From: a virus
Lineage: Duplodnaviria; Heunggongvirae; Uroviricota; Caudoviricetes
Strand: one strand, 5' to 3'
Virus record (IMG/VR): IMGVR_UViG_2534682338_000008
Coordinates: 1 to 17,844 of that record
DNA: 17,844 nt
A program made the position numbers and the translations under genes. This document shows positions 12,167 through 12,895 of the stretch, piece by piece. The stretch's first letter is position 1. The number at the start of each line of letters is the position of its first letter. The notes beneath the pieces are model-generated. The model saw only the letters and a program-made list of their open reading frames with translations, was not told the origin of the DNA and ran no database searches.

Positions 12167-12895
12167 TTATAGAGAAGGTAGAGTACCTGCTTCAACGGCT
12201 GCACCGTCTACAGCTAGGTTGAAAGATTTAGTTACTACTTCATCTTTATCACCGTCAATAGTGGTAGAACTAACAAAGCAAGTATAAACAACATAGAAAC
12301 CGGTAGTGTGAGTTGCGTCTGTATAATAGCTTAGACGAATCTGACAACGTTTCTGCTCGTCTGCGAGAGTCTCTAATTGTTGGTGTACTGTATTATCCGC
12401 AAGATAGTTAACACTTAGTTCAATGTCTGGGATCGATTTTGTGCCGAGCAACTTCATTTTTATTCACGTAGTGGCGTTAATACTACATCGTCATCGGTCT
12501 TTATGACTGCTGCATATTTCTATACAGATTAGACTATATCACAATCCGATATTTCGGATTCTCCCCATTTCGAGATTACTTAATCCCTACGCCTTTAGGC
12601 TAGTCGTTGAACGTTCCATATAATATGGCTTCGCTGCTGATTGTCTTTAACTTAATAATAAGAGTTTCCAGCAATTAGAGGAGTTATTCAAATAGTATTA
12701 CTACTATAGGCCGCTATTTTATCCACGGTTATAAGCTGAGTTAAAAGTTTTTACATCAATAACAACTGATTCAAAACCAGAAGTAGTAAAGCTAGCAACT
12801 TCGGGAACTTCTTTAAAGTCGGTCGCTAGTACGTTACCAGCACTTGTACCTACTTCTACTTTTAGGTTTGCACCTGACATAATATCCATAGCCAT
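12167..12895 (-). CDS. major tail tube protein, interrupted by a group I intron: exon 1 12725..12895, exon 2 12167..12454; spliced product about 152 aa
   Basis: Exon 1 (not in the ORF track) translates to [57 protein letters not shown], then GLY-stop in the unspliced RNA. Exon 2 is the track's 96-aa ORF minus its ATG. The spliced junction ...TFNSAYNR|[21 protein letters not shown]... matches the uninterrupted paralogous segment ...[29 protein letters not shown]... of the adjacent fibre. The tube assignment rests on position (after the terminator-like protein, before G/GT/TMP) and a loose resemblance to lambda gpV. Confidence 0.7.
12455..12724 (-). ncRNA. self-splicing group I intron (270 nt, no ORF) inside the tail tube gene
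   Basis: Read on the minus strand: the 5' exon ends in U (AACCGU^) and can pair as CCGU with GCGG at intron nt 11-14, giving a U-G pair at the splice site (P1). The intron ends in G immediately before exon 2 (AAUAAAAAUG^AAGUUG). It contains GUUCAACGACUAGCC and GAUAUAGUCUAA, matching the conserved R and S elements that form P7 (GACUA/UAGUC), with a CCGAAAUAUCGG hairpin between them (P8-like) and further hairpins 3' of S (P9-like). Confidence 0.75.

Follow-up and report, generated by a model that had tools for sequence, protein, structure and literature searches.

The window analyzed here comprises all 17,844 nt of a record from a tailed phage (Caudoviricetes; IMG/VR record IMGVR_UViG_2534682338_000008), in which the gene for the tail tube protein is read on the minus strand and is divided over two open reading frames (ORFs). 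We consider it very likely that the 270 nt between the two coding parts (12724..12455, minus strand) form an ORF-less group I intron of the IA type, located between R57 and K58 of the tube protein. This assignment is based on the RNA family, the exact boundaries, an intact core, the conserved ORF that is restored upon removal of the element, and a presence/absence polymorphism among near-identical phages. The elements of the split gene are the following.

12725..12895, minus strand: exon 1 of the tail tube gene, starting with the ATG at 12895; 57 codons, 171 nt, MAMDIM...FNSAYNR, last codons AAC CGU
12455..12724, minus strand: group I intron of 270 nt, ORF-less, with IA-type architecture (RF00028, consensus fold, covariation, minimum free energy (MFE) fold)
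12167..12454, minus strand: exon 2, 95 codons and a stop codon, first codons AAG UUG CUC (K58 L59 L60)
12711..12728, minus strand: helix P1, exon CCGU (12728-12725) paired with the guide GCGG (12714-12711, intron nt 11-14)
12719..12721, minus strand: in-frame UAA stop, intron nt 4-6, in the P1 loop
12601..12605, minus strand: 5' strand of P7, GACUA, inside the conserved GUUCAACGACUA; pairs with 12536-12532 and is invariant in 12 of 12 aligned introns
12532..12536, minus strand: 3' strand of P7, UAGUC, inside GAUAUAGUCU (J8/7-P7')
12572..12600, minus strand: hairpins P7.1 (GCC/GGC) and P7.2 (GGGAUU/AAUCUC) between P7 and P3', found in the consensus and MFE folds
12466..12507, minus strand: peripheral hairpins P9.1 (GUCAU/AUGAC) and P9.2 (AUGUAGU/ACUACGU), 3' of the Rfam model, found in the MFE fold
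12455, minus strand: terminal G (omega-G) at the 3' splice site, read from the sequence; the junction agrees with the intron-less alleles

Splice sites, fold and covariation of the intron

Exon 1 is preceded by an AAGGAA ribosome-binding site. Taking out 12724..12455 fuses CGT to AAG and gives, on translation, one continuous ORF of 152 aa, with TATAACCGT/AAGTTGCTCGG as the predicted spliced junction (here and below, the slash in a sequence across the insertion site marks the junction). In the unspliced RNA the frame continues into GGA UAA (12724-12719), so that translation would halt after 58 aa. The second ORF (96 aa, 12457-12167) occupies a different frame from exon 1, and its ATG (12457-12455) consists of the final three bases of the intron. 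Among the Gs upstream of exon 2, only G12455 as the last intron base keeps the frame, and the exon 2 frame is closed upstream by a TGA at 12466-12464; the boundaries 12455-12724, proposed in a first-pass annotation of this DNA, are therefore exact, and the fusion of CGT to AAG also reproduces the sequence of the intron-less alleles. Pairing of CCGU with GCGG places U12725 in a wobble with G12714 within P1, the U.G pair that marks the 5' splice site.

When the whole window was scanned against 4227 Rfam families, RF00028 matched at 12734..12510 (minus strand) with 84 bits and an E-value of 2e-20, well above its gathering score of 50 and over model positions 1-253 of 253. No other family matched within the 17.8-kb window. 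All conserved core stretches (AAUUGC.GGAAA, AAUC.GCAGC, GUUCAACGACUA and GAUAUAGUCU) agree with the RF00028 consensus; by place, the core blocks are AAUUGCUGGAAA in J3/4-P4, AAUCAGCAGC in P4'-P6, GUUCAACGACUA in J6/7-P7 and GAUAUAGUCU in J8/7-P7'. The helix set of the intron consists of P1, P2, P3, P4, P5, P6, P6a, P7, P7.1, P7.2, P8, P9, P9.1 and P9.2. The MFE fold of the window sequence alone contains P1, P2, P3, P4, P5, P6, P6a, P7.1, P7.2, P8 and P9, and adds P9.1 and P9.2 within the 55 nt that separate G12455 from the end of the Rfam model. An insertion of P7.1 and P7.2 is a hallmark of subgroup IA, and the presence of both hairpins between P7 and P3' gives the intron an IA-type architecture. 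The finer label IA2 rests on a resemblance to the introns of Twort orf142, which we presume to belong to that subgroup.

These results agree with most of what the first-pass annotation had read from the sequence alone. Its assignment to group I is confirmed by the covariance-model check against Rfam, and the 5' exon ending in U, the P1 of 4 bp and the terminal G before exon 2 are all found where it had placed them. The P7 that it had assembled from R-like and S-like elements is present as GACUA/UAGUC, together with its P8/P9-like hairpins (P8, P9, P9.1 and P9.2). It had further considered the intron too short to encode a homing endonuclease, and indeed no ORF of more than 27 aa is found inside the intron. 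The proposal that a 57-codon exon 1 joined to the 96-aa ORF restores a tube protein needs a small correction: the joining does restore the protein, but exon 2 contributes 95 residues and not 96. The junction peptide SAYNR-KLLGTK, suggested as a target for mass spectrometry, would not survive a tryptic digest, because trypsin cuts after both R57 and K58.

Covariation was analyzed in an alignment of 12 introns, containing the intron of the window and its two variant haplotypes (described below), eight tail-tube introns of three Silviavirus phages of Staphylococcus and, as the twelfth, the terminase intron of the Xanthomonas phage DES1. With no structure supplied, RNAalifold recovered P1-P9 from these 12 introns, with 34 predicted pairs changed on both sides. 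For the pairing count, the RNAalifold structure was used with P7 added as a pseudoknot. Standard pairs occupy 97.9% of 680 cells, versus 35-43% in controls with the 3' partners shifted by 1-3 columns, and compensatory changes occur in 34 of 57 pairs, versus 4-8 in these controls; none of 500 shuffles reached the observed values. Such changes support P3, P4, P5, P6 and P8. In P1, the U.G pair is found in 11 of the 12 introns and the remaining three of the four pairs covary. The few cells of P7.1 and P7.2 that are unpaired come from the clade of the window, where the alignment is shifted; the window's own fold has a clean P7.2 of 6 bp.

The steps of splicing can be outlined from the established chemistry of the group I family. 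Ribosomes on the late transcript would terminate at the second intron codon, the UAA of the P1 loop, and the intron RNA would fold into P1-P9.2. With U12725 held in the U.G wobble of P1, free guanosine bound in P7 would attack the phosphodiester that follows this base. G12455 would then take the place of the guanosine in the G site, and the 3' OH of exon 1 would attack after G12455, ligating ...AAC CGU/AAG UUG... The ligated mRNA would encode the full tube protein of 152 aa and ~16.4 kDa.

Relatives with and without the intron

With the spliced protein as the query, 102 homologues were identified, most of which are single ORFs of 148-159 aa, with identities of up to 95%. They come from Escherichia, Shigella, Salmonella, Klebsiella, Erwinia, Serratia and other Enterobacterales, and the name 'phage tail tube protein' has been given to several of them. 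The exon-1 and exon-2 matches abut with a gap of 0 (tblastn) in 54 of 56 IMG/VR loci; the remaining two are L045, with a gap of exactly 270 nt, and L055, in which only the exon-2 part is present, at a contig end. Including four further loci (L065-L068), all 58 complete uninterrupted copies have a gap of 0 at exactly the point between R57 and K58. L045 carries the same intron at the same site (98.1% identical; 81.9 bits on RF00028), and four contigs from assemblies of sequencing runs (L058-L061) carry a third haplotype, again at this site. These five contigs represent two intron haplotypes besides that of the window.

L065-L068 are essentially the same phage without the intron, with a tube protein that is 95% identical and a syntenic structural module of 20 kb. 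At the site they read TATAACCGT/AAACTACTAGGT, encoding FNSAYNR/KLLGTK, which is the same as the predicted spliced product, and the BLAST alignment of L065 with the window breaks at exactly 12725. In an alignment of 49 sequences, R57, K58, L59, L60 and G61 are among the near-invariant columns. The intron therefore sits in the best-conserved motif of the tube protein; insertion into a conserved motif is usual for group I introns.

In public assemblies, gene callers list separate ORFs of 56-58 aa and 96 aa for this gene, and the 96-aa ORF happens to start with an ATG. Both facts would suit an explanation without splicing, in which the 58-aa and 96-aa ORFs are two genes around a structured RNA, or are bridged by ribosome hopping. 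We give this almost no credence, and regard it as effectively refuted already by the single-ORF homologues and by the gap of 0 at the same point in every complete uninterrupted copy. In addition, the alignments of the tube protein to hidden Markov models (HMMs) and its fold match (see below) cover both exons, the internal ATG lacks an upstream ribosome-binding site (AAUAAAAAUG), a full-length group I intron fills the gap, and 270 nt with many stop codons far exceeds known bypass lengths, the bypass gap in T4 gene 60 being 50 nt. The split made by the gene callers turns an essential virion gene into two orphan ORFs. As a consequence, protein databases lack the tube protein of these phages, and their genomes give the impression of being defective. 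The annotation can be corrected with an Rfam scan.

The three intron-bearing haplotypes were compared with respect to the function of the split gene. Their exons differ at 24 synonymous versus 5 non-synonymous codons, and at 22 versus 7; they are under purifying selection, with the frame kept. Exon 2 DNA is 90-92% identical between the haplotypes, compared with 98.1% for the intron, whose length of 270 nt does not vary. All seven variable positions of the intron leave the helices unbroken. Five of them are unpaired, comprising the P2 tetraloop (GUAA to GCAA), one site in the P6a loop, two bases of the P7.1 loop (UAAA, GAAA or GUAA) and one unpaired base 5' of P6a (J6/6a). The other two preserve pairing: a change at C47 turns a C-G of P3 into U.G, and a change at G258 turns a U.G of P9.2 into U-A in the other haplotypes. 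The score of 84 bits for the window intron falls within the range of the tail-tube introns of Twort (63.6, 97.4 and 100.9 bits), which are said to self-splice in vitro in work attributed to Landthaler and Shub from 1999. Together, these data are good, indirect evidence that the split gene is probably functional.

The opposite view is that the intron is inactive and the tube gene a pseudogene, as part of a defective prophage or a helper-dependent element. It draws on the indirect nature of the evidence for splicing, and on other copies in the family that are visibly broken, by an IS3-family element in L055 and by a frameshift in L063 and L064. We consider this very improbable, as the core is intact with a covariance-model score in the Twort range, the exons of the three haplotypes are under purifying selection with the frame preserved, no helix-breaking substitution occurs among the intron haplotypes, and the remainder of the structural module is intact.

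Several observations nevertheless weigh against the interpretation of the element as a spliced group I intron. The occurrence of splicing and its efficiency, in vivo or in vitro, are what we infer from the data above. The P7 pairs are invariant in the alignment, so that covariation cannot test P7. The haplotypes are very close, which makes the seven substitutions a weak test; by a rough estimate the chance that none of them breaks a helix is ~4%. Shuffled sequences do not have a significantly higher MFE than the single sequence (z = -1.5), which is not unusual for an AU-rich ribozyme. Inspection by eye for a P10 between the guide and the start of exon 2 yielded no convincing pairing. Finally, in the structural model of the spliced protein (see below) the predicted local distance difference test (pLDDT) is below 50 at residues 39-64 around the junction, drawn there as two beta strands. 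The case for the intron rests on its architecture and not on folding energy.

The intron is rare, and confined to one phage cluster among ~70 related loci. Exact 35-mer scans for the intron found one IMG/VR contig (L045) and one metagenome contig (ULTA01023857.1, at 99.96% identity to the window), none of 100,044 GTDB representative genomes, and no further host gene. The phage is present in the samples SRR27902277, DRR771913, SRR21291477 and ERR11558579. The gene region had no megablast match in the phage, plasmid and complete E. coli genome collections, and the whole window matched only to a short fibre segment of T5-like phages; this phage is therefore not among the deposited isolates.

Two short homologues (P0087 and P0101) were examined as possible further intron carriers and rejected. 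In L055 (positions 1-170), the 3' end of an IS3-family transposase gene reaches within a few bases of codon R57. At the DNA level this stretch shares 88% identity with annotated IS3 elements of E. coli. The insertion site of the intron is thus almost exactly where another kind of mobile element has inserted in this contig. A Pfam search with the 52-aa fragment upstream of exon 2 in L055 gave no match, and this locus was rejected as an intron carrier on the basis of the DNA similarity to annotated transposases. The metagenome contigs L063 (165-724) and L064 (136-631), in which the tube gene is called as pieces of 56 aa and 111 aa, were rejected because of a frameshift near residue 93, reflecting either a pseudogene or an assembly error. 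L062 was rejected as a contig-end fragment.

Known phage introns and the origin of the insertion

BLAST searches of the phage collection gave near-full matches to the intron (nt 7-267, ~70% identity) in Staphylococcus Twortvirinae, which in the annotated regions lie in a multi-intron tail tube gene directly after the tail sheath gene. Coverage of the intron was lower for Escherichia phage records than for Staphylococcus records. In MT151386 the tail tube gene of Twort (58801-60092) is annotated as a join of four pieces, and RF00028 matches it three times; the sections of PMC11878797 that deal with Twort describe orf142, with three group I introns, as encoding the tail tube protein. Table S1 of that study from 2025 compiles >100 phage introns, mostly in DNA/nucleotide metabolism and terminase genes (PMC11878797). 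Under the keywords searched in its supplement, tail or capsid genes appear only for Twort, other Staphylococcus Twortvirinae and mycobacteriophages; within Table S1, the only tail-tube gene is that of Twort, and the E. coli phage introns among the entries examined are all in td and nrd genes (PMC11878797). The statement in the first-pass annotation that introns are uncommon in phage virion structural genes is thus fair, but Twort orf142 and the Silviavirus genes set a precedent for the tail tube. The literature searched appears to contain no description of a tail-tube intron in a lambda-like phage whose relatives are enterobacterial. The present case adds to the known locations of group I introns a late gene for a structural protein, in a lambda-like phage related to enterobacterial prophages.

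The nearest relatives of the window intron are those of Silviavirus (ON814135.1, PV017447.1 and OL436246.1), with three to four tail-tube introns each. Like the window intron, the Twort and Silviavirus introns match RF00028, are compact and ORF-less (~230-290 nt), contain P7.1 and P7.2, and have a similar P9.1/P9.2 tail ending in G. Intron 2 of Silviavirus shows BLAST similarity over nt 7-267 of the window intron (~70.7%), and the Silviavirus 5' exon ends in CGU paired to GCG(G/A), as in the window. There are also clear differences. The Twortvirinae that host these introns are 140-kb Gram-positive myoviruses, whereas the window derives from a lambda-like siphophage of ~35 kb with enterobacterial relatives. 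Their introns come as three or four in tandem, in contrast to the single intron of the window, for which exon skipping is impossible, and they are inserted near the C-terminus rather than at residue 57 of 152. Nothing is shared in the flanking coding sequence beyond CGT/AA.

As the best database match lies in a tail-tube gene, the intron lineage may pass from the tail-tube gene of one phage to that of an unrelated one, from myoviruses of Staphylococcus to enterobacterial siphophages. In the core, identity to the window intron is 68% for Silviavirus intron 2, 61-66% for Twort I1-I3 and 65% for the terminase intron of DES1. A tail-tube-specific intron lineage that includes Twort is unsupported, as Twort I1-I3 are no closer than DES1.

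The introns of the T-even phages (td, nrdB and nrdD/sunY) are likewise group I introns that interrupt conserved coding sequence in phages of Enterobacteria (here, a phage with enterobacterial relatives), and they also have an in-frame stop soon after the 5' splice site. They are located in nucleotide-metabolism genes of virulent T4-like myoviruses, in contrast to the late virion gene of the window, and most of them carry or once carried a homing endonuclease ORF, whereas the window intron is ORF-less. The DES1 terminase intron and the lysin and terminase introns of Streptococcus thermophilus phages resemble the window intron in being short, free of an endonuclease, located in late genes and sporadic among close relatives, but they occur in other host genes and other phage groups. 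The DES1 intron scores 99.9 bits on RF00028, is 65-70% identical to the window intron, and does not have the longer P5 and P6a elements of the latter.

Exon 2 provides an indication of how the intron was acquired. All intron-bearing alleles are separated from L065 by 12 sites in exon 2, six of which lie within the first 21 nt and are all synonymous, and the CTCGGCACAAAA string recurs in three intron-less alleles that are more distant (L028, L029 and L031). The clustered markers look like a co-conversion patch brought along with the intron from another allele, and the intron was probably acquired through recombination or homing, together with a short stretch of exon 2 from the donor. The string at the uninterrupted insertion site is AACCGT/AAACTACTAGGTACT. 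Many intron-less alleles carry AAYCGT/AAA, which is compatible with the guide sequence, and potential target sites are thus common.

Two other features of the window were considered in relation to the intron. The first is an endonuclease gene.

1863-2300, minus strand: free-standing SegE-like GIY-YIG endonuclease gene (PF19835, E 1e-16; PHROG 7363)

This gene adjoins a lysozyme gene (2339-2791, plus strand). A link with the intron is unlikely, as the gene is 10 kb away from it and is also kept in the intron-less L065-L067. The second is a divergent segment at ~10270-12100 (minus strand), covering the chaperone genes and the first two thirds of the tape measure gene, where the window is 45-75% identical to L045, L059 and L065; elsewhere it is 92-97% identical to them. 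An intron-caused mosaic boundary was rejected, since the other intron-bearing haplotypes match the intron-less L065 at 91-99% over 12100-10270 and the divergence is private to the window. The module swap represents ordinary mosaicism and has nothing to do with the intron.

The intron-plus and intron-minus phages form a natural matched pair, with ~92-97% DNA identity around the site and an identical protein across the junction, which allows tests of the spread of an ORF-less intron and of its cost or benefit. We regard the intron as probably a mainly tolerated selfish element rather than a regulator. It reveals no new mechanism, and is a fairly ordinary example in an unusual gene and phage group.

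The tail tube protein and its neighbourhood

PHROG 158 (major tail protein) matches residues 1-146 of the spliced protein, a stretch that includes the junction (E 3.9e-20), and Pfam family PF08813 (Phage_tail_3) matches the protein with 27.8 bits, at a cutoff of 24.2. An AF2 model that draws on 49 homologues reaches a mean pLDDT of 62.6, which is moderate confidence. The top Foldseek matches of this model, in alignments of ~145 columns, are all tube proteins: lambda gpV (7t4f, E 8e-7, TM 0.66), the YDC107 tail core, monocin and 80alpha. These matches bear out the tail-tube identity that the first-pass annotation had given to the split gene. The phage itself is a lambda-like siphophage of ~35 kb and 38% GC, with prophages of Enterobacteriaceae as relatives. 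The tube gene is followed by a gene for a 99-aa chaperone (PHROG 344), a 117-aa ORF and the gene for a 738-aa tape measure protein, an order also found in L065-L067; further along are a pb9-like distal tail protein and a gpJ-like tip protein. Two features flank the tube gene.

12968..16603, minus strand: uninterrupted gene of 1211 aa upstream of the tube gene, with a tube-like N-terminus, a fibre region and a C-terminal S74 chaperone
12132..12158, minus strand: strong terminator-like hairpin with a 12-bp stem and a T run, right after the stop codon of the tube gene and before the chaperone genes (hairpin scan)

The N-terminal 150 residues of the 1211-aa protein form a tail-tube domain (PHROG 158), its fibre regions resemble the side fibres of T5-like coliphages, and the C-terminal S74 domain is an intramolecular chaperone. 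Residues 1-144 of the spliced protein align with residues 1-150 of this protein at 29% identity (E 2e-16), colinear through the junction (YNRKLLG / YSEKLLA), as anticipated in the first-pass annotation for the N-terminal domain of the neighbouring fibre. The size of 152 aa, the conservation and the position of the split gene argue for it as the bulk tube subunit. The fusion of a tube-ring domain to a fibre suggests that the fibres may be anchored directly in the tube. A fusion of a tube-like domain to a fibre is also found in L059, L065 and L066 (1216-1219 aa), and Escherichia phage DCP80 has a 745-aa gene upstream of the tube gene. The terminator-like hairpin would fit a highly expressed tube transcript.

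With two tube paralogues side by side, the intron could act as a conditional switch, in which splicing is tied to translation, to the growth state of the host or to a protein cofactor, and sets the timing or amount of the plain tube protein versus the uninterrupted fibre-bearing paralogue. We think this improbable, although there is a stop codon in frame two codons into the intron, only one of the two paralogues is interrupted, and the terminator-like hairpin after the tube gene suggests a separately tuned transcript level. In addition, splicing in T4 depends on upstream-exon translation and growth state according to the sections on T4 in PMC11878797 (for T4 intron splicing, see also Sandegren and Sjoberg, 2007, as cited in PMC8541194). 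Against such a switch, the near-identical L065-L068 do without the intron, which is hence dispensable; it is found in a single cluster among the ~70 loci, and a sporadic distribution is the usual signature of a selfish insertion.

Under a further proposal, the intron may be a checkpoint on tail assembly and not a passive passenger. If so, splicing efficiency would set the ratio of plain to fibre-bearing tube subunits, and thereby the number or quality of tails. Taken jointly with the movement of the lineage between tail-tube genes as its second reading, we estimate the chances of this proposal to be low. The first-pass annotation had suggested that splicing would gate production of the tube protein; the data accommodate a regulatory role as well as a neutral selfish insertion. 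A tolerated, mainly selfish insertion is the interpretation that we prefer.

Some minor observations concern the surrounding sequence. Between the stop codon of the fibre gene and the ribosome-binding site of the tube gene, at 12930-12965 (minus strand), there is a 9-bp inverted repeat, GTAAGGGAG...CTCCCTTAC, without a T run. It was not flagged in the terminator scan, and could be a hairpin for RNA stability or processing. The 99-aa and 117-aa ORFs (11398-12101, minus strand) are ~50 nt apart and do not overlap, so that the usual G/GT-type -1 frameshift arrangement of tail chaperones is not obvious. Enterobacterales genomes have a GC content of roughly 50%. Across the phage family (the whole window and loci L002-L066) it is ~36-41%, with 38.1% for the window.

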